Assembly (NCBI GenBank): GCA_021791915.1 | Contig: JAJYVQ010000001.1 | Span: 9,875-73,874, forward strand | Direction: 5' to 3' | From: Actinomycetes bacterium | Lineage (GTDB): Bacteria; Actinomycetota; Acidimicrobiia; Acidimicrobiales; JABEUL01 | Length of the DNA stretch: 64,000 nt | Part shown: positions 1,931 through 64,000 of the stretch, piece by piece | Layout of the letters: every line of letters begins with the position of its first letter | How positions within the stretch are numbered: position 1 is the stretch's first letter | Translations under genes and position numbers: made by a program | Notes under the pieces: model-generated | Database searches by the model: none | Seen by the model: the letters and a program-made list of their open reading frames with translations, nothing else | Told to the model about the DNA's origin: nothing

Positions 1931-2525
1931 TTTGCCTACTACATCAATTTTTTAGTAAGTCTATAGATAACCCCGTGAGTTATTTTAGCCTCTTTTAACA
2001 TAAGTCAACTGACGCTAATTCATTGGGTAGTGGGTCAATTTGACCCTACACATTCTAAAACAGACAAATCTGTTTAATCCTGTAAGGCCCTACCAACCTC
2101 TAAAATATTTTAGGTTCAATTTACACTTTAGTTAAATCAGAGGGTATTTTGGTTATAAGCGTACCTAATTTTTCACATTGGTATGCAAGACTTAAAGTTG
2201 GACTTGGCTTATTTGACTATGATAGGCGGGGAATTTTTGACTATGGACATCTCAGGTTCTTTACAATGATTAGTTTGAGCAGAATGTTAGATTCAACTGG
2301 TTTCGAGATTGTTCAACTAAAAAGAACTACGATTCCAACGTCAGTTTTCAAAAGGGGGGAAAATATAATGGTAACCCAAGTATAGGTGACACCGTTCTAG
2401 ATGGTCTAGATACTATCCAAAACCTAGCAGTTAAAACGTATCCTAACTTATTTGCATACCAATTAATTCAGGTAGCTAAAAAACGAGAAATAGACAACGA
2501 CCTATCAACCGTCTACAGTCTTTAA
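1931..2525 (+). pseudogene. decayed, frameshifted remnant of a paralog of the GT2-methyltransferase gene at 12528..14048 (methyltransferase/C-terminal part only)
   Basis: Core in frame 1 (2104..2385): NILGSIYTLVKSEGILVISVPNFSHWYARLKVGLGLFDYDRRGIFDYGHLRFFT versus the intact VLNDLKNLLTQDGMIIISLPNISHWYARLKIGLGLFDYDRRGIFDVGHLRFFT. After the stop at 2383, homology continues in another frame (2385..2525): PNLFAYQLIQVAKK versus PSLFAYQMIFVVKP. A weaker upstream trace lies in a third frame (1931..1996): IFLVSSIDNPVSYF versus AFYKCDLDNPITDTF. No GT2 domain and no intact start are present. Confidence 0.7.
2014..2110. repeat. copy A of a ~95 bp dispersed element containing the palindrome GGGTCAA-T-TTGACCC (2032..2046)
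   Basis: Aligns by eye with 59645..59735. Shared string: GTAGTGGGTCAAnTTGACCCTAnCATTCTAAAnCAGACAAATC ... CCnTACCAACCTC. Confidence 0.75.
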
Positions 2526-2553
2526 CCTGCTTAATTCACATTTTCTAAAAAAG

Positions 2554-12527: not shown

Positions 12528-14048
12528 ATGCTAGAAAAACAACAAGTTAAAAGCAAGGCAAAAAATATTGGACTGATAAGTATTTCAGCTAGCGATGCCT
12601 CGCAACTCTATAGACTTTTTAGCAGCATACCTATTGATATTTCAGCACAAATCAAGAATATCTTCGTGCCATTGTTCTCCTGTAATGAAGATGATCCTAG
12701 AATTAAATCTTTCAGGAATTTAGAATTGGGGCCTGCAACTGAAGTCACATTAGCTATAATTCGAAAGTCGGCTCACCACGGCGAGATTCAGAAACTTGCT
12801 TTAGAGTGGGCGTTTGAAAGTAACTTAGATGTAGTGGTATTTGTTCACGGCGGAGGACTCTTCCCAGTTGAGTTCTTACCCGATGTAGTTGAACCAATAT
12901 TAAGCGATGTTGCAGACATCGTAATTGGTTCCCGCTTTTCCGAATATAAGCTATTATCTCATCAAATCATGCCGTGGATTAAGTATGCAGGGAATATCAT
13001 ACTTACGAATATAGGTAAATCTATGACAAATATTCAACTTACTGACTGGCATTCAGGATTTAGGGCGATGAGAGTTGACAAATTAACTGATATTCCGATA
13101 AATGTGAATTCAGATGGTTTTAATTTTGATTTTCAATTTTTGCTACAGTGCGAAGAGGCAAAATTAAGAGTCTCAGAGGTGCCCATTACACCTTACAGTG
13201 GCGACAATATGTCTTTAAGGGATGGATTCTTGTTCATGAAAGATGTCATAGTTGACATCGTAAGATATAGATCTCATAAAATCGGTTTTGGCACCGGGAG
13301 TACCACTTTTAACAGTATGCATTACGATCTTAAAGATGATGACAATGCGTCACACGGTCAATTATTATCAATTTTTTCCGCTATGGAACCTACTAAGGTC
13401 CTAGATGTAGGTTGCTCAGACGGTAAATTTGGTTCTCTTGTTAAGCGATTTGGGCATGTGGTTACAGGCATAGATTGTCTGGAACTTGAGGGGGTCAGAG
13501 ATAGACTGGATGCATTTTATAAGTGTGATTTAGATAACCCTATTACTGACACTTTTGACGGCCCGTACAATGTAATTTTAGCTGCAGATGTAATTGAACA
13601 TCTTAGAAATACTTCCTCCGTGCTAAACGATTTAAAAAACCTGCTAACTCAAGACGGAATGATAATCATAAGTTTACCTAACATCAGCCACTGGTACGCA
13701 AGATTAAAGATTGGACTAGGACTTTTTGACTATGACCGCAGAGGAATATTTGATGTAGGTCATTTGAGATTTTTTACTAAATTGAGCTTTACGAGGATAG
13801 CTACGAATTGTGGTTTACAATTAATCGATTATAAGCTTGTCCCATTTCCAATTTCAGTAATTGAAAGGGGTGGGTCAATTGCAACTAATTCCAGACAAAA
13901 TATTAGTTGGCACAAATTTCTACATTTTGCTAATAAAATAAATAATCTCTTTCTTAAACTTTGGCCGTCGCTATTCGCCTACCAAATGATTTTTGTTGTA
14001 AAACCAAAACATGGGGGTCTAAGACAAAACGTAACTATTATCAAATGA
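12528..14048 (+). CDS. fusion protein: GT2-type (polyprenyl-phosphate sugar synthase-like) glycosyltransferase domain + class I SAM-dependent methyltransferase domain
   Basis: 506 aa. GT2-like blocks: DIVIGSRFSE, LTDWHSGFRAMRVDKL, GFNFDFQFLL and RVSEVPITPYSGDN. Methyltransferase motif I VLDVGCSDGKFG, then VTGIDC, then motif II NVILAADVIEHL. Confidence 0.75.
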   Translation: MLEKQQVKSKAKNIGLISISASDASQLYRLFSSIPIDISAQIKNIFVPLFSCNEDDPRIKSFRNLELGPATEVTLAIIRKSAHHGEIQKLALEWAFESNLDVVVFVHGGGLFPVEFLPDVVEPILSDVADIVIGSRFSEYKLLSHQIMPWIKYAGNIILTNIGKSMTNIQLTDWHSGFRAMRVDKLTDIPINVNSDGFNFDFQFLLQCEEAKLRVSEVPITPYSGDNMSLRDGFLFMKDVIVDIVRYRSHKIGFGTGSTTFNSMHYDLKDDDNASHGQLLSIFSAMEPTKVLDVGCSDGKFGSLVKRFGHVVTGIDCLELEGVRDRLDAFYKCDLDNPITDTFDGPYNVILAADVIEHLRNTSSVLNDLKNLLTQDGMIIISLPNISHWYARLKIGLGLFDYDRRGIFDVGHLRFFTKLSFTRIATNCGLQLIDYKLVPFPISVIERGGSIATNSRQNISWHKFLHFANKINNLFLKLWPSLFAYQMIFVVKPKHGGLRQNVTIIK

Positions 14049-14156
14049 AGGCTAATATTAGATGAAGACTAAAGGTTAGAAATTTACAATATATCTATAC
14101 GCCCGAAATTGTTCGATAATATCTCATGAAACTGACAGCTCAAAGCTGTTTTTAAG

Positions 14157-14609
14157 ATGAAAAATTTTGTAACCTCAAAAACAGGTAAAACTTTCCTAAA
14201 ATATTCAGCATCATCAGTAATAACAACTATATTAACTGTAGTTGTAATCTATTTAACATACGATTTATTGAATCTCGCATCTGCAGGATGGTGCTCTGCC
14301 ATCGGTTCTATTTCATCTATAGGACCTTCTTATTTATTAAACAGAAAATGGGCGTGGGCTAAAACCGGGAAGTCTAACTTTCAAACTGAAGTACTTCCAT
14401 TTTGGTCAATTGGAATTAGCGGTATAATCATAGCTTCTGTGGCTTCAATTGGTGCAGCTGATTTAGCATCGACCATTAATAATTCGAAGCAACTATCTAC
14501 CCTATTCGTAGAAATCTCTAACATCGGTACATTCGGCATATTGTGGGTCGGTAGATTTCTAATTTTAAATCGATTTTTGTTTCGAGACAACCAAGCGGGA
14601 CCTCATTGA
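14157..14609 (+). CDS. GtrA-like small polytopic membrane protein
   Basis: 150 aa with four hydrophobic helices. Size, topology and position after a GT2 gene fit the GtrA family. Confidence 0.6.
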   Translation: MKNFVTSKTGKTFLKYSASSVITTILTVVVIYLTYDLLNLASAGWCSAIGSISSIGPSYLLNRKWAWAKTGKSNFQTEVLPFWSIGISGIIIASVASIGAADLASTINNSKQLSTLFVEISNIGTFGILWVGRFLILNRFLFRDNQAGPH

Positions 14610-14953
14610 AGAGAATTTTTTTTCAAATATTTGGTGATTATCAAATTCAACTATTGGCAGATCCAAACAATAAAATCAATACTACGACTTGCCAATGGAT
14701 ATTCGAACAGTTATCTTTATACAGTGAGCCAATAATGTTATTTCTCGTACATACCGAGATCACCAAATGTTAAGATAGATTTAGGTACAAATCTTCAGTC
14801 CCCGTGCCATTCAGGAATGTCACTACCTTTGATATAATTGTTTAATACATCTTTATCAAATAAGGCACAACTGTAAATTTACACAATTTGCGGAATAATT
14901 TAACCTCACTTCAGTGGTTAACAAACAAAAGTTTAATATTAAAGTAGAACTTA

Positions 14954-23082: not shown

Positions 23083-24270
23083 ATGAAGTCACTTTCAAAC
23101 TTAAAGCTCCAAAGTATAAAAGTCACTTGTATTGTAATTTTATTAAGCTTTACTTGCATAACCGCATGTTCTGGTCCATCGTCTAAACCATCTTCAACTT
23201 CAGACTGCTGGCCAAACTGTTCTAATTCCGAAGCGACAATGCGATTTGGCGTAATTCCAGGAGCATTCAGTATGGAACGCTACTTCGGAATTAAAATAAC
23301 TTCTAACAGCAACAATAAGTTGGAACTTGCCGTTTTAAGACAACTTGCAGGTGGAAGACCATTTTACATTCACATGTATGCAGCATGGAAATCTGGTATT
23401 AACTCTCAACTAATCGATCAAATCAATGAATACAAAAACGCTGGTCTTTTAATAAATTTAGCTTTACGGTATATTCCACCTGCTGGACATAACGGAGATG
23501 TAGTTGGATATGCAAACTGGATCAAATCTTCAGTTACAAAGCTCAAACAGGTGTCTATTTTTCAAATTACCAATGAAGCCAATGTCGGAACTACAACAGA
23601 CTCTGACGGTTATTATAAAAACGCACCCCTAGCTCTAGTTAAGGGAATTGAAGCCGCTGCTACAGTTAAAACAAAAAATCAAATTATCGGCTTTAATTGG
23701 TCAAATTCCCCATACGATTCACAAAGCGCACAGTTTTGGTCGCAACTTAAAACATTCGGTAATAAACAACTAATAAAGGATACTGGGTTTGTTGGAATTG
23801 ATCTGTATCCTCAAACTTATTTTCCTCAACTAACTAACACTGGATTAAAATCTCTTGAATCCGAGGTAACAAGTTCCCTTAAGGCTTTGCGGTATAAATT
23901 TATGCCATTGGCAGGTTTTACAAATAAAATTCCAATATTCATTCAGGAAACTTCGTGGCCTGACTATATACCCCCAAACACAAGTTTGCTTGCAGCAAAC
24001 AAACTTTACTCATTTGCTAACAATATCGTTCAAAAGATACTGAACGTAAATGCATTTAACAGGTCTCAAACAGCTCAAGCTAAAGCTCTGAGTCTCATCG
24101 TTAAGGGTGCAGAACAATCACATGTCAACGTAGAACTAATTCAGTGGTTTGATCTTCAGGACGCAAATAACCTTTTAGGCGACGGTTGGGGGCTTGTAAA
24201 TGACAATTTTAATCCGAAACCATCATTTTATGTTTTCAAATCCCTTGTAAAAAATACCCCAAATGGATAA
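23083..24270 (+). CDS. secreted lipoprotein, clan GH-A (TIM-barrel) glycoside hydrolase-like
   Basis: 395 aa. Signal peptide with lipobox ITAC, followed by the Ser/Pro-rich stretch SGPSSKPSSTS. FQITNEANV is a candidate Asn-Glu acid/base and IFIQETSWP a candidate nucleophile Glu, with spacing typical of clan GH-A. Confidence 0.55.
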   Translation: MKSLSNLKLQSIKVTCIVILLSFTCITACSGPSSKPSSTSDCWPNCSNSEATMRFGVIPGAFSMERYFGIKITSNSNNKLELAVLRQLAGGRPFYIHMYAAWKSGINSQLIDQINEYKNAGLLINLALRYIPPAGHNGDVVGYANWIKSSVTKLKQVSIFQITNEANVGTTTDSDGYYKNAPLALVKGIEAAATVKTKNQIIGFNWSNSPYDSQSAQFWSQLKTFGNKQLIKDTGFVGIDLYPQTYFPQLTNTGLKSLESEVTSSLKALRYKFMPLAGFTNKIPIFIQETSWPDYIPPNTSLLAANKLYSFANNIVQKILNVNAFNRSQTAQAKALSLIVKGAEQSHVNVELIQWFDLQDANNLLGDGWGLVNDNFNPKPSFYVFKSLVKNTPNG

Positions 24271-24943
24271 GCATAAAAAGTTATTCGTTGCAAATTCTTT
24301 GTCGGGATTATGTTTGATTCTGTCGTTAACCTTGTCCGAGGTATTCCCAGTATCTTCCACAATTAACAAAACTCCACAATTTTTTACCGCACGCCTTATT
24401 TTGACACCTATATGGGACTCAATTAAGTCACAACATAGCTGGGTTTTATTGGTACCCGCTGTAGTTCTGTTTATCATAAGCTTAAGCCCCTACTTATATA
24501 ACAAAGATACCAAGGAGCTTAAATGGTTTCCGACATGGATCGCAGTGGTTTTAATCGTAATTGGTTTATCTTTCTTTCCTTTGGCTTATTCCATTAAAGA
24601 TGCCCAAAATATTGGGCCCCTGTGGTCACTATTATTTTTTCTCTTTGCTGGAGTAAACCTTGTTGTGCAAAATAAAGATTTCTTTTTTGCTGCCACAATT
24701 TCAGCTTTCTTCTGGGATATGGGAGCTGGAATACAAGGTATAATGCGTTCGATTCCAACCCTTCCTGAACCTTATTACAATACAGCGAGTCCAAAGCTCG
24801 TTCTGGTCGTAGACTCTTTAGCAATTTTGATCACAATTGTGATATGGATTAGCGGGATTAAACCTTCAGACAGCTTAAACAAGCTCTACTTTAAATTCAA
24901 CCAATCTAAAACTAGAAGAATAAAACAAAGTACCGAAATTTAA
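24263..24943 (+). CDS. polytopic membrane protein, unknown function
   Basis: 226 aa with about 6 hydrophobic helices. Its start overlaps the hydrolase stop by 8 nt, which suggests translational coupling. Confidence 0.55.
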   Translation: MDKHKKLFVANSLSGLCLILSLTLSEVFPVSSTINKTPQFFTARLILTPIWDSIKSQHSWVLLVPAVVLFIISLSPYLYNKDTKELKWFPTWIAVVLIVIGLSFFPLAYSIKDAQNIGPLWSLLFFLFAGVNLVVQNKDFFFAATISAFFWDMGAGIQGIMRSIPTLPEPYYNTASPKLVLVVDSLAILITIVIWISGIKPSDSLNKLYFKFNQSKTRRIKQSTEI

Positions 24944-29274: not shown

Positions 29275-30216
29275 TTACTGAATATAAGTCGCTACGTTGT
29301 AACTTTGAATGTTGGACGAGGAGTGAGTATCGACAAGATCATAAATAGTATTCCCATCTGAAGACAGCTCTAGACCAATACAGTCCAATGGAGCTGGTAG
29401 CGTATTGTATATCTCATCAGTTGAGGTATTCACTAAAGCAATATTGCAAAAATTGACAGAACACTTTAATACCAATAGCACGTTCTCATCATTGCTTAGC
29501 GCCAAATTTATACCTGGTTGCTGTAAGTTTATGTATGACTCAATTTGGCCAGAATTTAAGGAAATACTCTGCACGGTTTGGTTATTTTGCAATGCAAAAA
29601 ACGTTGACGGATCTCTGCCGTTTGAGATCGACAACGTACCGTCTGATACAGGAATAATTTTTGAAATATCTTTTGTTGCCATATTGATTACCGCAACCGA
29701 ACGCACAAGATTCGTTGTTAACAACACCAACAGGGATCCTGCCGAAGTTGTCGAAGAGATCATCTTCACTGGATCTGGCAATGGAAGAGTACCTTCAAAT
29801 GCACCTGTTAACCCGTTATAAAACTCTAACGCTCCGGTATTATTTGGCCCAGCAATTCCTATAATTACTTCAGCGATACCATCACTTGAAATTGCCACCG
29901 CATTTTTATTTACAGGAACAATATTTAGTTTTTTGCCGTCGGCCAATCCATATTCGGTTATGGACTTACTCGAAGAATTCCCCGAAAGCACCCACACCCC
30001 TCCGTTAAACAACGGCGGAGAAAGTGAAATCGTATCGAGAGGTACTGGCATCACCTGCACTGGATTCAATCTAATCGGAGGTAACGTGGTGGTTGCATTT
30101 GTACTATTGTTGCTGCTGCTACATCCACAAAGTAGTATCGCAATAAATGTCAACGTTGATAAGGTAAATAGAGAATTAAACTTGGTTCTAAATCTGGGCA
30201 TAGGATAGTGACTCAA
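29275..30216 (-). CDS. lipoprotein with beta-propeller-like repeats (divergent YVTN-type)
   Basis: 313 aa. Signal peptide ending AILLCGC (lipobox-like), then the linker SSSNNSTNATTTLPP, then repeated short beta-strand blades. Confidence 0.5.
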   Translation of the reverse strand: MSHYPMPRFRTKFNSLFTLSTLTFIAILLCGCSSSNNSTNATTTLPPIRLNPVQVMPVPLDTISLSPPLFNGGVWVLSGNSSSKSITEYGLADGKKLNIVPVNKNAVAISSDGIAEVIIGIAGPNNTGALEFYNGLTGAFEGTLPLPDPVKMISSTTSAGSLLVLLTTNLVRSVAVINMATKDISKIIPVSDGTLSISNGRDPSTFFALQNNQTVQSISLNSGQIESYINLQQPGINLALSNDENVLLVLKCSVNFCNIALVNTSTDEIYNTLPAPLDCIGLELSSDGNTIYDLVDTHSSSNIQSYNVATYIQ

Positions 30217-30711
30217 AGCTAAAGAGAGGTAAACTGAAAATATTTACTTAAATAATTGACAACACTAAATTATATCTTAGGCGTAAGAACATTTACTAAC
30301 ATTTCTAAACTTTTGAACACCTGGGGTTCTGGTTCCAGTAGTATAATTAACAAAATAGAAAAGATGTGTAACTTTGCTACAAGCCCTTTCGAATACACAG
30401 GTTATTGTAGGAAACGTGGCAAATCGGCAACAAAATAGGAGTATTTAAGATTAGATATACCCAAATGAGTGTCGAAACTATATTAAAATTACTCATAGTA
30501 AAACTTTCTTACTTTTATAATTATTCATAACACAGACAAAACCTTTACATCAAGACCGTTTTATTTTATTTAAAATGGTTATAGGCTATATCGGTAGAAA
30601 ATATTAACATTTCAGATTAGTTACTTTAATGCACAACAACGGAAATGAGTTGAGATACGAGTCACATAAAGTAAGGTCTCGAAATCGGCAACTAAAAGTC
30701 GCATCTGAACC

Positions 30712-33700
30712 ATGATTACGACGACAACCGAAATACCAGCATCGCACTTAAATAAGATAAATACTTACTTTAAGAAGAATGTTGTATCAGAAATTAAGTC
30801 ACTAGATAAACCTTTTAGTATTTGGCTCATTGTAGTTAGTTCACTTGCCTTTCTAACTAGAGTTTTATTTGTTTCCTTAGCCAAATGGCATCAATATGTG
30901 TGGAACGATGGCGGCTGGTATCATTGCACCGCTCAAGTTTTATTAAATACACATAAGTTCATTGAAGCTGTTCCAGTTATGAAACACGGTTTAGTAACGG
31001 CATGTATCGCACTCAACTATCCAACTGCTGCCCATCCTCCACTTTGGATCGTGGTTCTTTCAATATGTGATATTTTTTCTCTCAATACCCTAGGTTCCCA
31101 ACTTATTGTGAACTGTATAATCGGCACGCTGGCAGTTACGGTTCTCATGGTTACGGCAAAAAGAATAGCTGGGAAAAGAGTGGCTATAATCGCTGGAATA
31201 ATCGGTGCTCTATACCCAGGTATGTGGCTTGAAACAGGACAGCTTACCGCAGAGACCTTGGCCCTCTTGACTGCAAACTTATCACTTCTAGCCTTTTATA
31301 AGCTTATAGACAAACCCACTACAAAAAGTGCAGTTTTGTTGGGTTTATGGTGTGCGCTGGCAGCGTTAACGAGATCTGAACTTGCTCTAACAGGAATACT
31401 ATTTCCAGCAACAATTTATCTACATAAGGGTTTTCGCAAATTCAGCGCTAAGCACAGAATCAAATTAGCATTAGTGGTTATATTTTCAATGGGTTTGACT
31501 ATGGCTCCATGGTTAATTAGGAATAACCTGGAATTTAATCATTTCACGCTAACGTCGACTGAGTTGGGCTTTACACTTGATATGGCCAATTGTAACCAAA
31601 CTTATTTTGCTCCTCATCCAGGTTCAACTAATTTGGACAACCCAAGCTTTGAGGGTTATTGGACCCTGTCGTGTGCACTCAACAGACCACCCAACACCGG
31701 TGAAGGATATGATAATTCTTATTACACAACATCTGCAGAAAAATATATAAAAAATAACATATATCGATTCCCCACTGTAGCTGTTATTAGAGTCGGCAGA
31801 TTATGGCAACTTTTTGACCCATTGGGACAAGCGAGACTTGACTTTCTTTCAGAACAGTGGAATTTACCCGGCGATTGGGTAAAGATATTTTCTCTATATG
31901 CTATGACCCCTTTCATTTTAATCGGAGTATTTATACTTAGGAAAAAGCGGAAAATTGGTTTTCCGTTAGCAGTATATCCGATTATCGCCACTTTTTCAGT
32001 AGCGTTCATTACTGAGGACCCCAGATATAGAGTTATGTCGGAAGGAGCAATTTCAATAGTTGCGGCAATAGGTATATCTTTTATTTTGGATAAAATTCAA
32101 GAAAAGCGACAACTCCCACCTAAATGGCTAGACCTCAATCCAAATTATACTTGGAACAAAACTTTAGACAGCACTGATTTTGTTCCTAGTGAAACTCAAT
32201 TCGGTTCCTTTAGTAGCCTTTTAAAAAAGTTAAGCATAAAATCAACCACTGTTATAAAACCGAGTCGAAAAACTTATATTTTAAGTTTTTTGTCGTTAGT
32301 ATTTTTATTTGGTATTTTATCTATCTCCTTTCCGATGTTATCTGGACCGGATGAAGCAGCAGCCGTTATCCATGCAGCAGGAGCAGCACATGGACAGTTA
32401 ACAGGCAAGGCCATGCCAGATCCTGACCGTAATTACTCATTGTCTTATTCGCCCTTTGAGCTTATAAAACTACCTAATTCGTTTATTCAAGTCACAAGCT
32501 ATGCAAATTGTTTTGGGCTCTCAGGATCAGATGCTAGTTGCGCAAAATTTTACGGCAAGATAAAACCTGGATCTTCATATGTCGTTTCTTATCAAGGAAG
32601 GTATCCGCCTTGGTACTTCGCAGCAATTGGATCAGTGAGTTTATTTACTTCCAGAACCTTAATGATCTATTTAATGAGATTTCTAAGTTTAATTTTAAGT
32701 GCGCTTCTTGTTGCTTCTGCAATCCAAGCTATTCTAGAGAGAAAAAGGCTTCGAATATTCGGGCTCTTGGGACTAGTACTGGCGATTTCGCCTAGTTTTA
32801 TAACACTGCAAGCGGTAATCGGTCCTTCTGCGACAGAAAGTGCGGCAGGGTTATGCTTCTGGGCAGCATCATTAAGACTATTGACTGATCCATTTACTTC
32901 AGGAAAACGACAGATAATGCGAGTAGGGTTATCTCTTTCAATATTTGTTCTTTCGCGACCTGATTCACCGCTATGGGCAGGAATTTCTATTATTTTTATT
33001 TTACTCGGAGTTGCAAAAAAAGAGAATATTGTTTATCTAATCAAGCAATCTTATATGAAGCTTTGGATAGCCATAGGCTTCGTATCTACCTTAGTAACAT
33101 TAACTTGGGACAAACTTGAGCAAGCTACCAATGTTTTAGGGTACACTTACAAACCACCATTTAACTGGTTCTCAATTTTTCACTACACGATTGATACATC
33201 ACCCACTTATCTTGCCCAACAGGTATCTTCTTATGGTGAAAAACTTCCTGGAATATTGGTAATTGTTGATGCTGCGGTTATTCTAAGCTTTGTAATCATA
33301 ACGTTATTAACTTCAACTTTTAGAGCTAAATTTACGATATTGCTATTTTGTATTGTGATATGGCTGATTCCTGTAGTCTCATCAGCTCTTGTTTTCCCGA
33401 AAGCTGGATTTATTTGGCAAGGAAGGTACTCCCTATCGGTTAGTATCGGACTCCCCATCCTTTGCAGTTTTTTAATAGGCGAAAAACAAATTTCGCTACG
33501 GAAATTTCAGCTTCATTACAATACCATTAAATTACAGTATCCTCTCGTTGCCTTTATAATTATCGGTATAGTATATTTCCTCAGTTTTTTCTATATAAAT
33601 TACCAATTCATGGCTGGAACAACAACCCCGATATTAATAAAATATATACTAGATCCACCTTGGCAACCCCCCCTCACGTCTTTAGGATTCATAGTATTGT

Positions 33701-33864
33701 GTGCAATTTCTATAATTGTCTTTCTAAGATTAATCTATCGATTTGGGAAAAATACTCCAGACTCAATTAGAGCAAATACTGAATTTCTCGACAGTTACAA
33801 AAATAACTTAGATGCAAACACTAAAATAGATGGAACTAATCAAATTCCTGCTAAGTTACCCTAA
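30712..33864 (+). CDS. fused polytopic membrane protein: N-terminal PMT_2/ArnT-like GT-C glycosyltransferase module + C-terminal DUF2142-like membrane module
   Basis: 1050 aa. Residues ~30-470 are paralogous to the 489 aa protein at 35246..36715, sharing the blocks PPLW, YPGMWL, ALTRSEL and APWLIRNN. Residues ~520-1010 form a second helix bundle opening with PMLSGPDEAAAVIHAAG, which resembles the DUF2142 PDExxH loop as I recall it. Confidence 0.6.
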   Translation: MITTTTEIPASHLNKINTYFKKNVVSEIKSLDKPFSIWLIVVSSLAFLTRVLFVSLAKWHQYVWNDGGWYHCTAQVLLNTHKFIEAVPVMKHGLVTACIALNYPTAAHPPLWIVVLSICDIFSLNTLGSQLIVNCIIGTLAVTVLMVTAKRIAGKRVAIIAGIIGALYPGMWLETGQLTAETLALLTANLSLLAFYKLIDKPTTKSAVLLGLWCALAALTRSELALTGILFPATIYLHKGFRKFSAKHRIKLALVVIFSMGLTMAPWLIRNNLEFNHFTLTSTELGFTLDMANCNQTYFAPHPGSTNLDNPSFEGYWTLSCALNRPPNTGEGYDNSYYTTSAEKYIKNNIYRFPTVAVIRVGRLWQLFDPLGQARLDFLSEQWNLPGDWVKIFSLYAMTPFILIGVFILRKKRKIGFPLAVYPIIATFSVAFITEDPRYRVMSEGAISIVAAIGISFILDKIQEKRQLPPKWLDLNPNYTWNKTLDSTDFVPSETQFGSFSSLLKKLSIKSTTVIKPSRKTYILSFLSLVFLFGILSISFPMLSGPDEAAAVIHAAGAAHGQLTGKAMPDPDRNYSLSYSPFELIKLPNSFIQVTSYANCFGLSGSDASCAKFYGKIKPGSSYVVSYQGRYPPWYFAAIGSVSLFTSRTLMIYLMRFLSLILSALLVASAIQAILERKRLRIFGLLGLVLAISPSFITLQAVIGPSATESAAGLCFWAASLRLLTDPFTSGKRQIMRVGLSLSIFVLSRPDSPLWAGISIIFILLGVAKKENIVYLIKQSYMKLWIAIGFVSTLVTLTWDKLEQATNVLGYTYKPPFNWFSIFHYTIDTSPTYLAQQVSSYGEKLPGILVIVDAAVILSFVIITLLTSTFRAKFTILLFCIVIWLIPVVSSALVFPKAGFIWQGRYSLSVSIGLPILCSFLIGEKQISLRKFQLHYNTIKLQYPLVAFIIIGIVYFLSFFYINYQFMAGTTTPILIKYILDPPWQPPLTSLGFIVLCAISIIVFLRLIYRFGKNTPDSIRANTEFLDSYKNNLDANTKIDGTNQIPAKLP

Positions 33865-33915
33865 GTCATAAAATGCTCTTGGAATACAATAATTCCACCC
33901 TTTATGGATTCAGAT

Positions 33916-35043
33916 TTAACCGCTTCCATTATTCAAAGGAACTTCTGGGGGCAAATAAGCTAACGAAACCGGCGTGCCTACTATATATTGCGGAATACGT
34001 ATTACATTAGTTAACATGGATACATACCAACAAATACTAGTTTGCGTATTGATACCAAATACATTGTTTCCATATCTACCAGTAGTTATATCGGTCAATT
34101 GCTGATTTAAGCTAATCGTAGATGTGATTATGTTTTGGTCGGTATTTAGTTGAATAAGTTCAGGTGGATTTATTGTAGCGATATCAGCAATATTAGAATT
34201 TTGAGCAAGTGCAATTAAATTCGGGTGGCCACTCAACGGTAAAGTGGATACGACCCTCAGGGTAGTTAGATTTACAGTACTAATGGACTCTGATCCAAAA
34301 TTTGCAACATATAAATGCGAACCAGTAATTTTGCCAATCGCAGCTTGTATAGGATCCGTACCGACTTGAATAGGCGTTAGCTGAGAAATAGAAGTCGAAG
34401 TTAGCGAGATCGGTAAGATTTCGTTTAAACTGGACTCCGTTAAATATAGCATCGTACCTGAAGAATTTACATTCATTGAGGTAGGATCAGGACCTGCAGG
34501 AATCGTTCTGAAATATCGAGGCCCAACCAAATAATATTCAGTTATGGTATTATTTCCCTTGTTTAAGATAAACATTTTTGGCTGGGGTTGTCCAGGGGCA
34601 ATTGAGATCTGAATTGGATCTGGACCTGTTTTGAGGGACTTATAAGCCGTATATGAGAATAAGCTTATTAAACTAACAGTGTTTGACCCACTATTTGCGA
34701 CATACAATTGAAAACCTTCGGGGTCTATGACTATAGAAGAAGGGTCTTTACCTACCTTTATTTTTCCAGTTACCGCCAAACCGCTTTTCAAATTAACTTC
34801 CTCAACAGCATCATCGCTCTGTAAAACAACCCAGTCAAAACTTGGCTCTGAAGTCTGTATCTTAGTCGTTGTAACCGTGGTTGTACTTGGAGAAACTAAG
34901 GTAGCTGTGGGCGAACTATAATTTAGTCCGTTAATTGCAAATACCAGCATCGCAACGACGAATAAGACCACTGCTATTTTTATAATTATTGATATCTTAT
35001 CTTCGATATCATTTACAGCACTTTGTAAATAACCTTTTTTCAC
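33916..35043 (-). CDS. membrane-anchored YVTN-family beta-propeller repeat protein
   Basis: 375 aa. N-terminal signal-anchor IKIAVVLFVVAMLVFAI, then the linker SSPTATLVSPSTTTVTTTKIQTSEPS, then repeated blades such as KVGKDPSSIVIDPEGFQLYVANSGSNTVSLISL. Confidence 0.75.
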   Translation of the reverse strand: MKKGYLQSAVNDIEDKISIIIKIAVVLFVVAMLVFAINGLNYSSPTATLVSPSTTTVTTTKIQTSEPSFDWVVLQSDDAVEEVNLKSGLAVTGKIKVGKDPSSIVIDPEGFQLYVANSGSNTVSLISLFSYTAYKSLKTGPDPIQISIAPGQPQPKMFILNKGNNTITEYYLVGPRYFRTIPAGPDPTSMNVNSSGTMLYLTESSLNEILPISLTSTSISQLTPIQVGTDPIQAAIGKITGSHLYVANFGSESISTVNLTTLRVVSTLPLSGHPNLIALAQNSNIADIATINPPELIQLNTDQNIITSTISLNQQLTDITTGRYGNNVFGINTQTSICWYVSMLTNVIRIPQYIVGTPVSLAYLPPEVPLNNGSG

Positions 35044-35245
35044 TTTAATTGATTTGCAATATCATTAAATTAATACTTTTAAGTCACTTATTAACATTTT
35101 GATTCAATTGATCCTTTTCCCTGATAGTTGTTACTGTAAACTCATAATACTTGGTCTAAAATACCGTACCAACTAATGTTCACTACCCATCCCAGCTGAT
35201 ATCTCACTATCCTAAAAGTATTTTGACATAAATTCTTTTGCATCT

Positions 35246-36715
35246 TTAGGTCATTGCCTCAATTAAAAATTTTATTACAAGCCGCATAAAGTTCTTCCAT
35301 TTTTCTAAAAGGTTAGAGATAAAATTCCGTGTAAACAACCTAGTAAAACCAGAATTATAGAAATGGGTCAGAGAATATGCCGATAAAATACAAAATGCTT
35401 CTTCAGCTACAACTCTAAACCTACAATCATAAGAAAATAGAGCTACGGTAAACGATTCAAGTAACACCAAAGATAAAATCGGCCATATAAACTGCTTTTT
35501 TGTAAAAGCCAAATAAATTCCATACAGCGTCAGAGGGAAAAGAAAATAAAATACGATCATTTTTACGACATCCCAACTGTAGTTCCACTGTTCAAAATTG
35601 TAATCAAATCTCACTTCTCCCAACGGATCGAAAAGCTGATACATTCTACCGAGTCGAATAACCATCACCGCAGGCAACCTAACTAAATTATGGCTTACAT
35701 ACTTAAACGCATAATGCTCAGCACTTGCTGTACCTTGTGATTCATCTCCATTTACTATCGGATAGTTACAGTCTGCATAAGAACCTTCAGTAGAGGGACT
35801 ATTCAAGCTAAATGTAGCTCCAGGTGAAGCATAAAACACTTGGTTGCAATCCGTTATACCAAGAGTTAATCCCAAATCAGTGGAAGTCCAAGTAAAATCC
35901 TTGAACACAATATTATTTCGTATAACCCATGGTGCTATCATTAAAAGCATAATCATTACAGGGATAGAAGCAAATTTTAACTTTTTTCTAAAATTAAATT
36001 TAAAATGTTTTGAGACAAAAATTGGAATAACCAATAGAAATGCCAATAAAAATAGTTCAGATCTCGTAAGTGCAGACAAACCGCACATTATTCCAAGTAA
36101 AACGGCGGAAGAAATATTTTGTCGTTCATAAAATCGATAGGACATTATTACAGCACCAAGAGTAACTACTGTCGCCAAACTTTCAACGGTTAACATACCA
36201 CTAACTAACCACATTCCCGGATATAATGCCGCAATCACGCTAGATACTAAGCCAACTTTTCGCCCGAAAACTCTTTTGGCTACTAAGCCAATTAGCGGAA
36301 CAGCTAATCCATTAATTATACAATTAATTATAAGTTGCCAACCCAGAGTCGTAAAGCCAAGTTCATCAAAGAATGCAAGTACCATGGGCCAGAGCGGCGG
36401 TGCTTGAGCACTATAGCCTCCAAAATCAAGACAGGAAATCGAGGCCCCATGATTAGCTGTTGGAGTAGCCAACGATGGATACAGTTTACCTTGCGTCATT
36501 TCATAGGCAAAACAATGATATAATGCTCCGTTGTTCCAATCAATTGGATGCCAAGCTTCAAGTGAAACAAATGTAATTCGAACTACTAGGCCCAAAATAA
36601 AGATAGCGAAAAGTGCAATTCTGAACCTTTTCTGCTTTAAACGAATTACTTTTCGAGACTTGATCTGATTCAGCGGCCTTCTATTAGATTCGATTTTATT
36701 ACTTATATCAACCAT
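35246..36715 (-). CDS. PMT_2/ArnT-like GT-C family glycosyltransferase
   Basis: 489 aa with about 11 helices. An early extracytoplasmic loop carries Asp (WHPIDWNNGALYH). Blocks PPLWP, YPGMWL, ALTRSELF and APWVIRNN are present. Confidence 0.65.
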   Translation of the reverse strand: MVDISNKIESNRRPLNQIKSRKVIRLKQKRFRIALFAIFILGLVVRITFVSLEAWHPIDWNNGALYHCFAYEMTQGKLYPSLATPTANHGASISCLDFGGYSAQAPPLWPMVLAFFDELGFTTLGWQLIINCIINGLAVPLIGLVAKRVFGRKVGLVSSVIAALYPGMWLVSGMLTVESLATVVTLGAVIMSYRFYERQNISSAVLLGIMCGLSALTRSELFLLAFLLVIPIFVSKHFKFNFRKKLKFASIPVMIMLLMIAPWVIRNNIVFKDFTWTSTDLGLTLGITDCNQVFYASPGATFSLNSPSTEGSYADCNYPIVNGDESQGTASAEHYAFKYVSHNLVRLPAVMVIRLGRMYQLFDPLGEVRFDYNFEQWNYSWDVVKMIVFYFLFPLTLYGIYLAFTKKQFIWPILSLVLLESFTVALFSYDCRFRVVAEEAFCILSAYSLTHFYNSGFTRLFTRNFISNLLEKWKNFMRLVIKFLIEAMT

Positions 36716-37022
36716 TGACGTATGAAATAACTAAACTCAGCTGAATAACTTATCTTTTTCAAACATGACAATTAAATCTAAACTCATATAATCAACTTTA
36801 AATTCTGTTGCTACTACTCGAAATAAGCTTAATGATAATTCAACTAACTTGAAAATAAATTTACAGTTTACTTTTCGGATTAATAAAACCCTATAACCCA
36901 AATTACAAATCTTATCCTTCTATGATTGCACAACTGTATTTTGATAATTTTACTCAACGACTCATAGCCTTCTTCCACCTTTACATCGGTTAACCATTTC
37001 GCACCATTATTTATCCCAAACA

Positions 37023-38114
37023 TTAGGTAGACTCATATTTGCTCGGACTGTATGAAAGAGCAACGGGATCGCCAGTTAAGGGAATTGAATTAATAATACT
37101 TCCCGTCAACAGGGAAAAATATTTGGCTGACAATGATTGCAAGTCAATTACAAATCCATTTCCGTTAGGCAAACAGTACAAACTTGTAGGTTCCCCTGGC
37201 ATGGAGATAGGCTTCAATGGCGAAAATGCAATTAAATCTATAGGAACTATTTGATTGGAGGACCCTAGTGTAACATAAATTAATCCTTGATTGTATTCTT
37301 CACAAATAGATGTCGGCTGACCTCCAATGTTTAGGGTTGCTATTACCTTTGAAGAAATATAGCTAATTATGGATACCGTTCCCGTTGCTTGACTCAAAAC
37401 GTATCCGACACTGTCAGAATTTTGATCCGACATGATCTTCATTGGATCACTTGCCACTGCAATAGGTGCAGCAATGGGTTTAAAAGTTGATAGATTGACT
37501 GGCAACACTGCATTATCTCCTTGATCAACGATATAAGCGACATCGGATGTCTGATCGATTGCAATCGAAACTGGTGCTGGACCACCGTAGAAAGATCGTA
37601 TCACCTTTAGCCCGAGTAACTGGATAGAAGTTATGGAGTTTGAGCCACTATTTACCACATATAAAATACCTGTTGCAGAATCAATTGCAGCAGCAACTGG
37701 GGCATTTCCTACGGCAATCGTTTTATATGCCTTAACGGAAATCATTGATATAACACTTACGTTATTTGAGCCTTTGTTAATAACGTATTGCTGAAGACCA
37801 GTAGGGTCTGGTATCATTGCAACAGGGTCGTTGCCAACTTTTATTACAGTGGGAGGTGAATCGTTATTGTAATTATAAATCTCTATAGAATTCTTGGCAC
37901 TATCCACAACGGAGATATTCGGTGATTGATTAGTTTGAGTTTGTTTCGCATTATTTGTCGACGCACTCGAAGAAACGTTAGCAACATTAGGCGGAGTTGA
38001 TCTTTCAAAACTGTTTATTAAAACTTGTAAAATGATCACAGTCAACAATAAAATTATAAACTTAGTAATTGATGGACTTAATTTTCTAGTTCGCTTCAAC
38101 TGGTTAGGCGTCAA
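37023..38114 (-). CDS. membrane-anchored YVTN-family beta-propeller repeat protein
   Basis: 363 aa. Anchor FIILLLTVIILQVLI, then the linker STPPNVANVSSSASTNNAKQTQTNQSPN, then blades such as KVGNDPVAMIPDPTGLQQYVINKGSNNVSVISM and VGNAPVAAAIDSATGILYVVNSGSNSITSI. Confidence 0.75.
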   Translation of the reverse strand: MTPNQLKRTRKLSPSITKFIILLLTVIILQVLINSFERSTPPNVANVSSSASTNNAKQTQTNQSPNISVVDSAKNSIEIYNYNNDSPPTVIKVGNDPVAMIPDPTGLQQYVINKGSNNVSVISMISVKAYKTIAVGNAPVAAAIDSATGILYVVNSGSNSITSIQLLGLKVIRSFYGGPAPVSIAIDQTSDVAYIVDQGDNAVLPVNLSTFKPIAAPIAVASDPMKIMSDQNSDSVGYVLSQATGTVSIISYISSKVIATLNIGGQPTSICEEYNQGLIYVTLGSSNQIVPIDLIAFSPLKPISMPGEPTSLYCLPNGNGFVIDLQSLSAKYFSLLTGSIINSIPLTGDPVALSYSPSKYEST

Positions 38115-43470: not shown

Positions 43471-44481
43471 CTATCTAAATCCCATCTCACAGTGAGCTCT
43501 ATTTGAGATGATCCAACGTTTTTCCTCAACCCACTTGTTTGAAACCTTTTTTTCCAAGAAAACTTCCGCATCTCCAATTTCAGTATTTACGCAAACTGCT
43601 TTTTTGCCATCTGGATCTGTATACTCAACTTCAACACATTTTTCTTTATCTAATTTAACTTTAACTTCAATCCTGTAGTCTCCAAACTTTCCGCTTACAG
43701 ACCAATAGTTGTTATCCTGTTTTTTAGATAGTTTCGTCTTAAAAAAAGGAAATGCAGTTAGTGGATTTGAAGGCCAGTCTTCGTTGTTGTACCTTAGCTG
43801 TACAAAAGCAAACGGCTTAAGACGATCAAGCCCTGGCTTAGTCGATACCGCAGTAACAATCTCTAGCATGTCTTTTCCACCAAGATCAAGGTGAAGCCAC
43901 GCCCATTTTTTGGCATTGCCGTGCCCATAGATTCTAGCCAATGCTCCTTTGGCATTAGAAATCTCGAACTCCTTGTTCATTACTGTGATTGTTCCGTTAT
44001 AGGTTAAGTTTGGTCCAGCAACTATTTGACAACTGGGCAATATCTCCTTATCCCACGCCAACTTCGTAAAAGTATAAATAGGCGGGTCCGTAAACTCATC
44101 AGTCTTAAGATCCCAACTTAAGTTATCTGTCTTACCTCGTCGTATATTCGGTGCCACTTTAACTTCGCCGCACTCAAAAAACTCAGAAGATTCAAATTCC
44201 ACTGGCCCAAATCTTTCAAAACCAACCGATATTGTATTTTCGTCATCAGTGAATATCTCAGAGTTAAAAAAATATGCCAACCATCCGTGTACATATGGCT
44301 TTGCATCTTCTGGTGATACCATTTCATGGTGTATCCAAAAGCCTGCTTTGAGTTTTTCATCAGTGAATGTGTCGTACCAAACTTCAAGTCGTTCTTTGGA
44401 ACCATCAAAACGTCCCTTAAGAAGTTCAATTTGAGTGGGTATTTTTTGATCTAAAGTGGATTTCTTCTTCATACTCTTCAT
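43471..44481 (-). CDS. hypothetical protein; weak resemblance to the tocopherol-cyclase-like fold family
   Basis: 336 aa, soluble. LEVWYDTF..GFWIHHEMVSP and IYGHGNAKKWAWLHLDL recall the cyclase blocks FFEGWYxR..FAFMYS and EKNWGxxFPxxWxWxQ. This rests on memory of the motifs only. Confidence 0.25.
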   Translation of the reverse strand: MKSMKKKSTLDQKIPTQIELLKGRFDGSKERLEVWYDTFTDEKLKAGFWIHHEMVSPEDAKPYVHGWLAYFFNSEIFTDDENTISVGFERFGPVEFESSEFFECGEVKVAPNIRRGKTDNLSWDLKTDEFTDPPIYTFTKLAWDKEILPSCQIVAGPNLTYNGTITVMNKEFEISNAKGALARIYGHGNAKKWAWLHLDLGGKDMLEIVTAVSTKPGLDRLKPFAFVQLRYNNEDWPSNPLTAFPFFKTKLSKKQDNNYWSVSGKFGDYRIEVKVKLDKEKCVEVEYTDPDGKKAVCVNTEIGDAEVFLEKKVSNKWVEEKRWIISNRAHCEMGFR

Positions 44482-62115: not shown

Positions 62116-64000
62116 ATGAGAAAAATTAACTTCAACAGAAGTCGTTTTACTTTAAGCAAAATTCCATTAAAACAAAAGCACACTACCCGCTTAATAAAAT
62201 TACAGTCGGCAAATAGCTCCAGAGATACCACATTTTTCAGACGATTAACTAAGACACTTACACTTGCAGTGGTAATTACACTACTGTCTGCTTACATGTT
62301 TGTTATGATCCCTATGGGGACGAACAAACTAAAAAATTCCTCTCTTACCTCCAATTCGACGCCATTAGCATGGACTGCTTACGTTGGCAACCCTGGCTCT
62401 AATAATATTGTGCCCTTTAACACATCTACAGAAAATCTTGGAACTCCAATCAGTGTGGGAAACGGACAAAGGTCCGTAGCCATAACTCCCAATGATTCGA
62501 CACTATATATTTGCAATCATGCAGGAACTATTTCATATGTTAATATAGCCACGGGATCTGGATCTGGAAATATAGGCATTGGTGGCGGGTCTGCTCCGTA
62601 TGCTATGGCAATCACGCCCAAAGGGACCGCAGGTTATATTGCTGATTACGGCGGAAGCAAAATAATTCCAGTTAACACCGTTACGAATTCACCTGGATCA
62701 TCTATAGTATTAAGCGGTGCGCCTAATGATGTTGCGGTGACACCGAACGGAGACTATGTTTTAGCTACGGTCCCTTCAAGTAATCAAGTAGTAATATTGT
62801 CAACTTCCACAACCGCTATTTTAAATACGGTTACAGTACCAGGCGCATCGGGAGTAAGTATTCAGCCAAACGGCCAAGTCGCATGGATAGCCAGTTCTTC
62901 TAGTGATTCGATCTATCCTCTATACTTGGCAAGTGATACCGTTGGGACAGCAATTCAGGTCGGGAAAGACCCTCAGGGAATAGCAGTAACCCCAAACGGA
63001 CAACAGGTTCTCGTTACAAACTATAACTCTAACACTGTAAGCGTTATATCTACAAGTACCTTTCAGGTTTTGAACACTTTTACAGTTGGCCAAAATCCCA
63101 TCGCAATAGCTGTAACTCCCGATTCAAAGATGGCTTATGTCGTAAATAGCGGAGACGGAACTGTTATGCCAGTAGTATTAGCTACAGATACTCCCCAAAC
63201 AGCATTTAGTATCGGAGTAGGAATAGATTCAATAGCAATCGATCCAGATCAAGCTCCCGTAGCACAACTCAGCGTCACGCCAGCTCCTGCAGGAAGTGCG
63301 ACCACCTTTGACGCCTCACACTCAACGGTCACGTTTGGAACCATAGTCAAGTATGTATGGAACTTCGGAGATGGTACTTCTCAAACTACAACAGTGCCAA
63401 CAACCAGCCACACTTATCTGGTGGGTGGAAGCTATTTGGCCTCCGTTACCGAAACTGACTCAGCCGGAACTTCTATAACGAGGACCTTTACTGGTCAAAC
63501 TATGTCTCAAAACGGCGGGTATTCTGCGGTTGCTTCACAAGACGTATACGTTCCGACATTTACTACACCTAACTGGGAAGCATACGTAGCTAACTCATCA
63601 GCTAATACCGTAACTCCCGTTAACGTTGCAACTGACGTAGCTGGCTCCCCTATAACAGTAGGAACTGATCCGGTGGCTTTAGCGATCACCCCTAACGCAT
63701 TTGATGTATTGGTTGTAAATAAAACATCAAACACCGTAAGTGAAATTGCGACTTCAAACAACTCCGTAGTAAAAACAGTAACTTTGGCTAGTGCTCCCGA
63801 TGCAATTGCAATTTCACCAGACGGTACCACCGCTTGGATCGCAGAGTATGGGGCAAATCAAGTAGTCCCGATTAACTTAAATTCAATGACAATCGGTACT
63901 TCAATTTCAGTAGGAACGGAACCAGACGCCATAGCAATTTCTCCAGACGGAACAACATTATATGTTGCCAACTACAACAATGCAAACGTTTCTGTCATTG
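62116..64000 (+). CDS. large membrane-anchored surface protein: YVTN beta-propeller + PKD-like domain + second YVTN beta-propeller; runs off the right edge
   Basis: Hand translation from ATG 62116 (GAGGA upstream) stays open to 64000. It reads MRKINFNRSRF..., anchor LTLAVVITLLSAYMFVMI, blades VGKDPQGIAVTPNGQQVLVTNYNSNTVSVIST and VGQNPIAIAVTPDSKMAYVVNSGDGTV, a PKD-like segment FDASHSTVTFGTIVKYVWNFGDGTSQTT..SHTYLVGGSYLASVTETDSAGTS, then new blades VGTDPVALAITPNAFDVLVVNKTSNTVSEI and VGTEPDAIAISPDGTTLYVANYNNANVSVI. It is absent from the ORF track because it is truncated. Confidence 0.8.
   Translation, partial: MRKINFNRSRFTLSKIPLKQKHTTRLIKLQSANSSRDTTFFRRLTKTLTLAVVITLLSAYMFVMIPMGTNKLKNSSLTSNSTPLAWTAYVGNPGSNNIVPFNTSTENLGTPISVGNGQRSVAITPNDSTLYICNHAGTISYVNIATGSGSGNIGIGGGSAPYAMAITPKGTAGYIADYGGSKIIPVNTVTNSPGSSIVLSGAPNDVAVTPNGDYVLATVPSSNQVVILSTSTTAILNTVTVPGASGVSIQPNGQVAWIASSSSDSIYPLYLASDTVGTAIQVGKDPQGIAVTPNGQQVLVTNYNSNTVSVISTSTFQVLNTFTVGQNPIAIAVTPDSKMAYVVNSGDGTVMPVVLATDTPQTAFSIGVGIDSIAIDPDQAPVAQLSVTPAPAGSATTFDASHSTVTFGTIVKYVWNFGDGTSQTTTVPTTSHTYLVGGSYLASVTETDSAGTSITRTFTGQTMSQNGGYSAVASQDVYVPTFTTPNWEAYVANSSANTVTPVNVATDVAGSPITVGTDPVALAITPNAFDVLVVNKTSNTVSEIATSNNSVVKTVTLASAPDAIAISPDGTTAWIAEYGANQVVPINLNSMTIGTSISVGTEPDAIAISPDGTTLYVANYNNANVSVI

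Follow-up and report, generated by a model that had tools for sequence, protein, structure and literature searches.

What do membrane-bound GT-C glycosyltransferases do when their genes alternate with the genes of anchored beta-propeller proteins? The question is raised by a 64,000-nucleotide stretch of contig JAJYVQ010000001.1 (assembly GCA_021791915.1) from an Actinomycetes bacterium, which we refer to as the window. On this GC-poor chromosome, a 9-kb cluster encodes three GT-C modules in two genes, interleaved with three genes for anchored beta-propeller proteins. As read from the open reading frames (ORFs), there is no other content between these five genes. We tentatively interpret the cluster as a native chromosomal locus for O-glycosylation of linked substrates, similar to the Pgf cluster of Streptococcus mutans. 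The five ORFs, their order, their orientations, and the rbfA and menD-like genes that flank them are exactly as an earlier reading of this DNA (the initial annotation) had them. The features are as follows, with protein lengths in amino acids (aa):

29275..30216, minus strand: lipoprotein propeller, 313 aa, with the lipobox L-C-G-C32, a Ser/Asn/Thr-rich linker, and a YVTN-type propeller
30712..33864, plus strand: tandem double GT-C enzyme, 1050 aa, a continuous ORF in independent assemblies
30712..32121, plus strand: its N-module, a PMT_2 GT-C (about aa 1-470) with W-N-D66-G in the first loop; the Asp66 codon is 30907-30909
32260..33864, plus strand: its C-module, a divergent DUF2142-like GT-C (about aa 517-1050) with G-P-D547-E; the Asp547 codon is 32350-32352
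33916..35043, minus strand: type-II signal-anchored YVTN propeller, 375 aa, with a transmembrane helix at about 19-37 and a disordered Ser/Thr/Pro linker at about 41-66
35246..36715, minus strand: standalone PMT_2 GT-C, 489 aa, with D59-W-N-N62-G; codon 62 is 36530-36532
37023..38114, minus strand: type-II signal-anchored YVTN propeller, 363 aa, with a Ser/Asn/Thr/Gln-rich linker; a paralog of the 375-aa protein

The two membrane proteins are GT-C glycosyltransferases, not transporters, as had been proposed. Both match PMT_2 (PF13231) above its gathering score of 26.1 bits, the 489-aa protein with 42.4 bits and the 1050-aa protein with 34.4 bits. PF13231 is the sole Pfam family found in either protein at E ≤ 1, and neither matches YfhO. 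Neither matches PF02366 at this threshold, so we rejected membership in the Pmt family proper. A simple hydropathy scan found 7 strong hydrophobic segments in the N-module of the 1050-aa protein and 8–9 in the 489-aa protein. These two sequences share 40% identity across an alignment of 455 residues (E = 7e-102), and all four sequence blocks that had been put forward as evidence of paralogy (PPLW, YPGMWL, ALTRSEL, and APW(L/V)IRNN) are shared in the alignment. Other homologs of the PMT_2 proteins are sparse: two are 40–45% identical and the rest are about 31% identical or less. The named ones are annotated as ArnT-like.

Two different GT-C modules stand in tandem in the 1050-aa protein. Its gene is intact on three contigs from different samples (L001, L002, and L007). 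We considered that the fusion could be an assembly artefact and rejected this, since it is present in independent assemblies. The C-terminal half (aa 497-1050) has no Pfam match even at E ≤ 5 and is below the threshold for PF09913 (DUF2142); its closest homolog, P0090, has no PF09913 match either. The homologs of the C-module with E values of 4e-39 to 2e-8 all carry PF09913, and 17 of the 19 members of the C-module alignment match it (best E = 1.9e-48). Those with names are from Modestobacter and Nocardioides; among the homologs in general, the named ones suggest an origin in Actinomycetota or Terrabacteria. A structural model from AlphaFold (AF2) has a pLDDT of 83.6 and a pTM of 0.88, and a Foldseek search with this model found ArnT (5F15) at E = 1.1e-4 and a probability of 1.00. 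The top matches were ArnT, EmbC, AglB, AftB, DPY19, PglB, and Pmt, with probabilities of 0.98–1.0. We rejected a transporter identity for the C-module, as matches to the major facilitator superfamily had probabilities of 0.35 or less, versus 0.98–1.0 for GT-C proteins. The suggestion of DUF2142 in the initial annotation was thus right for the C-terminal half of the fusion.

In the nearest relative (L013/L018), the two modules are encoded by separate genes. The N-module is 49% identical to a standalone ortholog there (P0003), and the C-module has 36% identity (E = 2e-98) with a protein of 533 aa that stands alone, whose gene adjoins the P0003 gene and is divergently transcribed. Because the modules of the fusion are split as separate genes in this relative, a Rosetta-stone link, the comparison shows that the PMT_2 and DUF2142-like modules act together. 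We did not see a tandem fusion of PMT_2 and DUF2142 among about 100 homologs, and a literature search for tandem GT-C enzymes found no such fusion.

The linker between the modules (aa 460-521) has 62 residues, of which 11 are Lys or Arg, and it is probably cytoplasmic. If so, the first loops of both modules would lie outside the cell. In the C-module, the motif GPD547E, just after the first transmembrane helix, is invariant in the alignment, and the loop that follows this helix contains a conserved pair of cysteines.

The corresponding loop of the PMT_2 family contains an aspartate (WNDG) in 14 of 15 family members. The sole exception is the 489-aa paralog, which has Asn62 instead (WNNG). It does have an upstream Asp59, which is not conserved in the family; the fusion keeps Asp66 and lacks this upstream residue. 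A profile comparison pairs this Asp of the family, though weakly (E = 0.018), with Asp47 of AglB from Archaeoglobus fulgidus, the catalytic first-loop residue of that enzyme. Because Asn62 replaces a nearly invariant aspartate, the 489-aa protein may be catalytically altered, non-catalytic, or re-specialised.

All three propeller proteins have a single N-terminal hydrophobic segment, and just after this anchor, each has a 25-residue window that is 64–68% Ser, Thr, Pro, or Asn. The anchors and the linkers rich in these residues had been noted in the initial annotation and are borne out. It had also described the same type of YVTN blade in all three proteins. This is correct for the 375-aa and 363-aa proteins, which each contain at least four blades with the motif at a spacing of about 42 aa, and which match the YVTN family TIGR02276 at 51.6 and 42.6 bits, respectively (the cutoff is 27.85). 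These two proteins are 30% identical to each other (E = 1e-32). The description does not fit the 313-aa protein, which lacks the motif and, compared pairwise, does not significantly resemble either of the others.

We assigned the fold of each propeller by a different route: from a structural model for the 375-aa protein, from TIGR02276 for the 363-aa protein, and from a family profile for the 313-aa protein. In the model of the 375-aa protein, an N-terminal helix is followed by a linker (residues 48-66) whose pLDDT is under 50 and then by a propeller core with pLDDT of about 85–98. The core has 24 confident strands, or 6 blades, along with a low-confidence seventh blade. Its best structural match is the YVTN domain of a Methanosarcina S-layer protein (1L0Q; E = 6.7e-18, TM score 0.63).

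The 313-aa protein has only sub-threshold direct matches to protein families and no direct match to TIGR02276. It belongs to a family of proteins of about 300 aa, which clustering at 50% identity reduces to 183 representatives and in which the lipobox cysteine (C32) is conserved in at least 90% of members. Because the profile of this family matches 1L0Q (E = 8.6e-35), the 313-aa protein is a YVTN-type propeller from a separate and widespread subfamily. TIGR02276 itself is matched by just 8 of 40 tested members. This family (P0151-P0299) has no Pfam or NCBIfam model of its own, and 27 of the 40 tested members weakly match a model for a stabiliser of the MmpL3/TtfA complex. Gene callers place the start of the 313-aa protein five codons later, which would give 308 aa. 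Downstream of its gene, after 45 bp, comes rbfA on the same strand.

The gene for the 375-aa protein is convergent with the fusion gene, with a gap of 51 bp. On one contig (L009, positions 2005-3186), we saw a variant within the population: the C terminus of the 375-aa protein is changed, giving 393 aa, and the gene overlaps the 3' end of the fusion gene.

How might these proteins work together? In our tentative reading, the three GT-C modules would sit in the cytoplasmic membrane with the acidic motifs of their first loops on the outer face, and would transfer sugars outside the cell from polyprenyl-phosphate-linked donors. These donors would probably be made by a GT2 protein similar to PpgS or AglJ and handled by a GtrA-family protein, both encoded 16 kb away. 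The likeliest acceptors would be the linkers, disordered and rich in Ser and Thr, by which the three neighbouring YVTN propellers are held at the membrane. The fused enzyme could perform two successive steps, such as priming and extension, and the Asp-to-Asn paralog may be catalytically altered or non-catalytic. We infer the topology, the donor, the acceptor, and the division of labour between the modules from the genes. That the GT-C proteins glycosylate the linkers of the adjacent propellers is plausible, and they may be dedicated to these propellers, as the initial annotation had proposed. Consistent with this, the stretch of the 375-aa protein that is rich in Ser, Thr, Pro, and Asn comes directly after the anchor and is predicted to be disordered. 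Also, a propeller gene adjoins a GT-C gene at one distant locus (L015), which is an independent instance of this adjacency at a distant homolog.

Two other parts of the window are relevant to this reading:

12528..14609, plus strand: candidate donor arm, a 506-aa GT2-like protein and a 150-aa GtrA-family protein, about 16 kb from the cluster
62116..64000, plus strand: the 5' part of a fourth signal-anchored YVTN gene, about 24 kb from the cluster; the full gene is at 3304-9423 of L024

The N-terminal domain of the 506-aa protein (gene at 12528-14048) matches polyprenyl-phosphate sugar synthases only: AglJ (3e-12), PpgS (2.3e-7), and a dolichyl-phosphate (Dol-P)-hexose transferase (5.4e-6). All of these matches are far below the cutoffs, and the protein does not match PF00535. 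The C-terminal domain is a methyltransferase that resembles sugar methyltransferases; its best matches in PDB are 3CC8 and TcaB9. The GtrA-family protein (14157-14609) matches PF04138 marginally, at 27.2 bits versus 26.1. Another member of this gene group (12528-16999, plus strand), near the GtrA gene, encodes a 681-aa protein that has a weak match to GlfT2_N only and no match in PDB or NCBIfam. A GT2 synthase, a GtrA protein, and a GT-C enzyme would make up a three-component system for extracytoplasmic glycosylation, but the GT2/GtrA pair and the GT-C genes are not encoded together; housekeeping genes lie between them. We infer the link between the donor arm and the cluster.

On longer contigs, the fourth YVTN gene encodes a 2,039-aa protein with alternating YVTN propellers and PKD domains. 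Its neighbours encode a D-Ala-D-Ala carboxypeptidase, a rhodanese/lactamase_B protein, a CsoR-like repressor, a DUF302 protein, and an epimerase. The 2,039-aa protein is S-layer-like and would probably be a further acceptor, modified in trans.

Several observations weigh against glycosylation of the propellers. The initial annotation had expected GT-C genes and propeller genes to be conserved neighbours in related genomes. We examined nine distant loci with homologs of the PMT_2 or DUF2142 modules (L011, L012, L013/L018, L014, L015, L020, L021, L022, and L023) using hidden Markov models (HMMs) of the two propeller subfamilies, and none of the nine had a YVTN gene within 7–10 kb. The nearest relative has no YVTN gene on the 10 kb at hand, which covers one side. 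When we looked at distant loci for anchored neighbours rich in Ser and Thr, we found only scattered lipoproteins and no systematic pattern. L015 is the exception to the lack of propellers: a lipoprotein propeller of the BamB/PQQ type (its lipobox is ASA|C, followed by TSSTDVSP) is encoded there 25 bp upstream of the GT-C gene, inside a polysaccharide cluster. The homologs at these nine loci are only about 25–49% identical to our proteins. A scan of reference genomes with four close sequences found two distant loci only, and two metagenome scans found no close relatives. Overall, the outcome of the conservation test is mostly negative, and weakly so.

The linkages that do recur are between PMT_2 and DUF2142 genes (at L013/L018 and L015) and between tandem pairs of PMT_2 genes (at L011, L021, and L022). 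The side-by-side paralogs are at L011 8283-11281, L021 2381-4956, and L022 3810-8326; the pair at L021 follows a 579-aa polytopic protein that has no family match. Also, some distant loci contain genes for GT2, GT4, sugar-nucleotide, methyltransferase, and acyltransferase proteins, and several of the distant homologs are surrounded by polysaccharide genes.

Other unfavourable points concern the cluster itself. The identical arrangement, with identical proteins, is found on at least 10 contigs from ENA, JGI, Logan, and NCBI metagenome-assembled genomes (MAGs), including GCA_027390115.1, GCA_027390195.1, and GCA_027390165.1. These contigs are near-clonal: none departs from the window at more than 17 bases per 21 kb. 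The locus is real, yet it is sampled from a single population, and the interleaved propeller and GT-C genes are seen in this population only. The paralog pairs within the cluster could stem from the duplication of one propeller and GT-C unit, in which case there may have been just one or two independent adjacency events. The intergenic gaps within the cluster are 51–495 bp; its intergenic regions are unusually long for the window, and gaps of 200–570 bp argue against tight operons. Anchored proteins often have Ser/Thr-rich linkers, and Ser, Thr, Pro, and Asn make up 35–37% of these proteins as a whole. The match of the donor-arm GT2 protein is far below the cutoffs, the arm is 16 kb distant, and no GT-C gene is among the neighbours of the 2,039-aa YVTN/PKD gene. 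The enzymes lie outside Pmt (PF02366) and YfhO, the family of proven protein O-glycosyltransferases. Finally, DUF2142 proteins have been assigned, by prediction, to the assembly of cell-wall polysaccharides (PMC12599335, PMC9746298).

This last point leads to another explanation, which we consider a serious but less probable one: the GT-C modules might act on an envelope glycan rather than on protein, building or decorating a wall polysaccharide or a glycolipid, for example. The propellers would then be surface proteins unrelated to the enzymes, from a family expanded in this genome, and the adjacency would reflect the general clustering of envelope genes along with local duplication. Emb/Aft, ArnT, and GacL all act on non-protein envelope glycans. 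The DUF2142 proteins WpsI and WpsJ have predicted roles in such pathways, and members of the family have been placed in the rhamnan and cell-wall polysaccharide (CWPS) pathways (PMC12599335, PMC9746298). The distant loci fit this explanation as well, as they combine sugar-related genes with the absence of YVTN genes, and as their conserved linkages are PMT_2 with DUF2142 or with another PMT_2 rather than GT-C with propeller. So do the fourth YVTN protein, which is encoded elsewhere without a GT-C gene, and the weak GlfT2_N match of the 681-aa protein near the GtrA gene. On the other hand, chance would hardly place three anchored propellers in alternation with both GT-C genes, and there are no genes for polysaccharide synthesis in or beside the cluster, which is flanked by rbfA and by men genes. 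Furthermore, acceptor specificity changes readily within GT-C families: members of the YfhO family act on teichoic acids or on proteins. The family context is therefore weak, given that the homologs are 25–30% identical. We rank protein glycosylation slightly above glycan synthesis because the interleaved anchored proteins, with their disordered Ser/Thr tethers, outweigh the family context.

It is also conceivable, and we think unlikely, that the propellers are non-catalytic extracytoplasmic partners of the enzymes, such as a scaffold, a subunit that presents the acceptor, or a regulator of chain length. We know of no characterised GT-C enzyme with a propeller subunit. Comparable cases would be WpsH, a predicted co-polymerase that accompanies WpsI; lipoprotein propellers of the BamB type; and the stabilising propeller of the MmpL3/TtfA complex. 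The adjacency in our cluster and the lipoprotein propeller upstream of the GT-C gene at L015 are both consistent with such a role, and a flexible tether would let a propeller reach the membrane-proximal loops of a GT-C protein. WpsH is described as a partner protein with an extracytoplasmic loop (PMC12599335, PMC9746298). The propellers do match the model of the MmpL3/TtfA stabiliser (NF048007) weakly, but these matches are far below the cutoff and are common to every YVTN family. Also, the adjacency is not kept at most of the homologous loci.

The gene order raises another question, which is whether the cluster is a recently acquired genomic island that displaced nusA and infB from their place upstream of rbfA. 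The initial annotation had pointed out that nusA-infB do not precede rbfA, and indeed both genes are absent throughout the window. The unusually long intergenic regions would also suit an insertion. But the GC content is 0.371 both inside and outside of the cluster, and the GC content at third codon positions (GC3) is similar to that of the flanking housekeeping genes. As had been noted, there is no integrase or transposase within the cluster; it also contains no tRNA or other RNA gene, and a search for flanking repeats found none. The paralogs have diverged to 30–40% identity in place. We rejected a mobile island on its native composition and its lack of mobility genes and repeats, and we consider a recent acquisition very improbable. 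The implication in the initial annotation that the cluster was inserted is thus unsupported.

One flank of the cluster is rbfA (PF02033)-truB-ribF-def-fmt, and the other is a menD-like gene for a thiamine pyrophosphate (TPP) enzyme, followed by menH-, menA-, and menB-like genes. One MAG from the same population (L005 126-1919, in GCA_027390115.1, near 40.8 kb of the window) has an insertion sequence (HTH_Tnp_1 and rve transposase) that interrupts the menH-like hydrolase gene. It lies about 2.7 kb from the cluster and is absent from the window. Beside the menaquinone genes (43471-44481, minus strand) is a 336-aa protein with a sub-threshold match to tocopherol cyclase (PF14249; 21.0 versus 26.6 bits). 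At 23083-24943 on the plus strand, which is the minority strand, there are two ORFs (395 and 226 aa) that overlap each other and match nothing in Pfam or NCBIfam.

No Rfam family reached its gathering score across the window (1-64000), and no rRNA or tRNA was found. The flavin mononucleotide (FMN) riboswitch was not found with Rfam in the window either, although there is a rib operon (about 18.7-21.5 kb) as well as ribF (26.5-27.5 kb). The results of a scan for promoters and terminators were at chance (38 found versus 37.3 expected and 7 found versus 6.2 expected). There is one more candidate gene at the edge of the 363-aa propeller gene:

36880..37023, minus strand: 47-aa ORF, MFGINNGAKW...VIWVIGFY, whose ATG shares a base with the end of the 363-aa propeller gene (TAATG)

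This ORF is a doubtful gene; it is among the genes called on all of the contigs, and it matches no family.

If the propellers are glycosylated, then the protection of juxtamembrane Ser/Thr tethers that is known from streptococci would have been reused in a distant lineage, with unrelated GT-C families. For PMT_2 and DUF2142, two large and uncharacterised families, there would be a concrete class of substrates, and the natural fusion of two GT-C modules would be a compact model for the coupling of successive GT-C steps. A bolder version, which we consider rather unlikely, is that this uncultured, probably actinobacterial lineage is coated with YVTN glycoproteins, including the 2,039-aa protein, whose membrane-proximal linkers are glycosylated by an enzyme of an undescribed type, in which the PMT_2 and DUF2142-like modules act one after the other, with the Asp-less paralog as a non-catalytic or re-specialised subunit. 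Protein O-glycosylation would then extend to PMT_2 and DUF2142, and this would be the first protein-directed role for DUF2142. If the acceptor is instead a wall glycan, then this would be an ordinary cluster for envelope biosynthesis, unusual only in the fusion and in the Asp-to-Asn paralog.

How does the proposed locus compare with known systems? The initial annotation knew of no characterised example of this arrangement. There are characterised analogues, including the Pgf cluster and the TfpW-PilA pair. The Pgf cluster of S. mutans encodes a GT-A enzyme, an epimerase, and two GT-C paralogs, and modifies Ser/Thr-rich adhesins (bioRxiv 10.1101/2024.05.05.592596). Like our cluster, Pgf (PgfS, PgfE, PgfM1, and PgfM2, with Cnm, CnaB, and CbpA as substrates) has two paralogous GT-C proteins clustered with Ser/Thr-rich surface proteins. 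There, the GT-A enzyme makes a polyprenyl-phosphate sugar, from which the proteins are glycosylated on the outer face; we propose the same here. The systems differ in that PgfM1 and PgfM2 belong to the YfhO family instead of PMT_2 and the DUF2142-like group, that the substrates of Pgf are LPXTG collagen-binding adhesins instead of anchored YVTN propellers, and that the genes for the GT-A enzyme and the epimerase are inside the Pgf cluster, whereas our candidate donor genes are 16 kb away.

The GtrB/PgtC2 system of S. pyogenes and S. pneumoniae resembles our proposal in its targets: it glucosylates juxtamembrane, Ser/Thr-rich, disordered regions of extracytoplasmic membrane-associated proteins. 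The pathway also runs from a GT2 synthase through an undecaprenyl-phosphate (Und-P) sugar to a GT-C enzyme. Its enzymes are from another GT-C family, are found in Firmicutes, and are not encoded beside their substrates. Pmt (PF02366), with Ppm1, has the GT-C fold, uses polyprenyl-phosphate-mannose as the donor, and modifies Ser/Thr-rich regions of secreted proteins and lipoproteins. Unlike the actinobacterial and eukaryotic Pmt proteins, our enzymes have no PF02366 or PMT_4TMC domain and match the sister family PF13231 only.

The adjacency of a GT-C gene to the gene of the protein that is O-glycosylated has a precedent in Pseudomonas aeruginosa, where tfpW is immediately downstream of its substrate gene pilA (bioRxiv 10.1101/2020.04.19.049825). 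TfpW has a periplasmic TPR domain, arabinosylates pilin, and has no sequence relationship to the proteins of our cluster. The C-module of the fusion is a distant relative, with the GT-C fold, of the lactococcal and streptococcal DUF2142 proteins from the Wps and rgp systems, where WpsI is the predicted polymerase, WpsJ the predicted transferase, and WpsH their predicted partner (PMC12599335, PMC9746298). It differs from them in that it is below the threshold for PF09913 and is fused to a PMT_2 module, in a cluster without rhamnan or polysaccharide genes.

As for the propellers, their best structural and profile match is the surface-layer protein of Methanosarcina mazei (1L0Q), which has tandem YVTN and PKD domains, and the 2,039-aa protein has the same alternating YVTN/PKD architecture. 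The M. mazei protein is archaeal, while each protein of the cluster has one propeller and no PKD domain, with a lipid or a transmembrane helix as its tether. The parts of the locus are of known kinds (a PMT_2 GT-C, a DUF2142-like GT-C, and YVTN propellers), and the proposed logic has characterised analogues. What is new are the GT-C families used, the tandem of PMT_2 and DUF2142, the Asp-to-Asn paralog, and the propellers as candidate acceptors.

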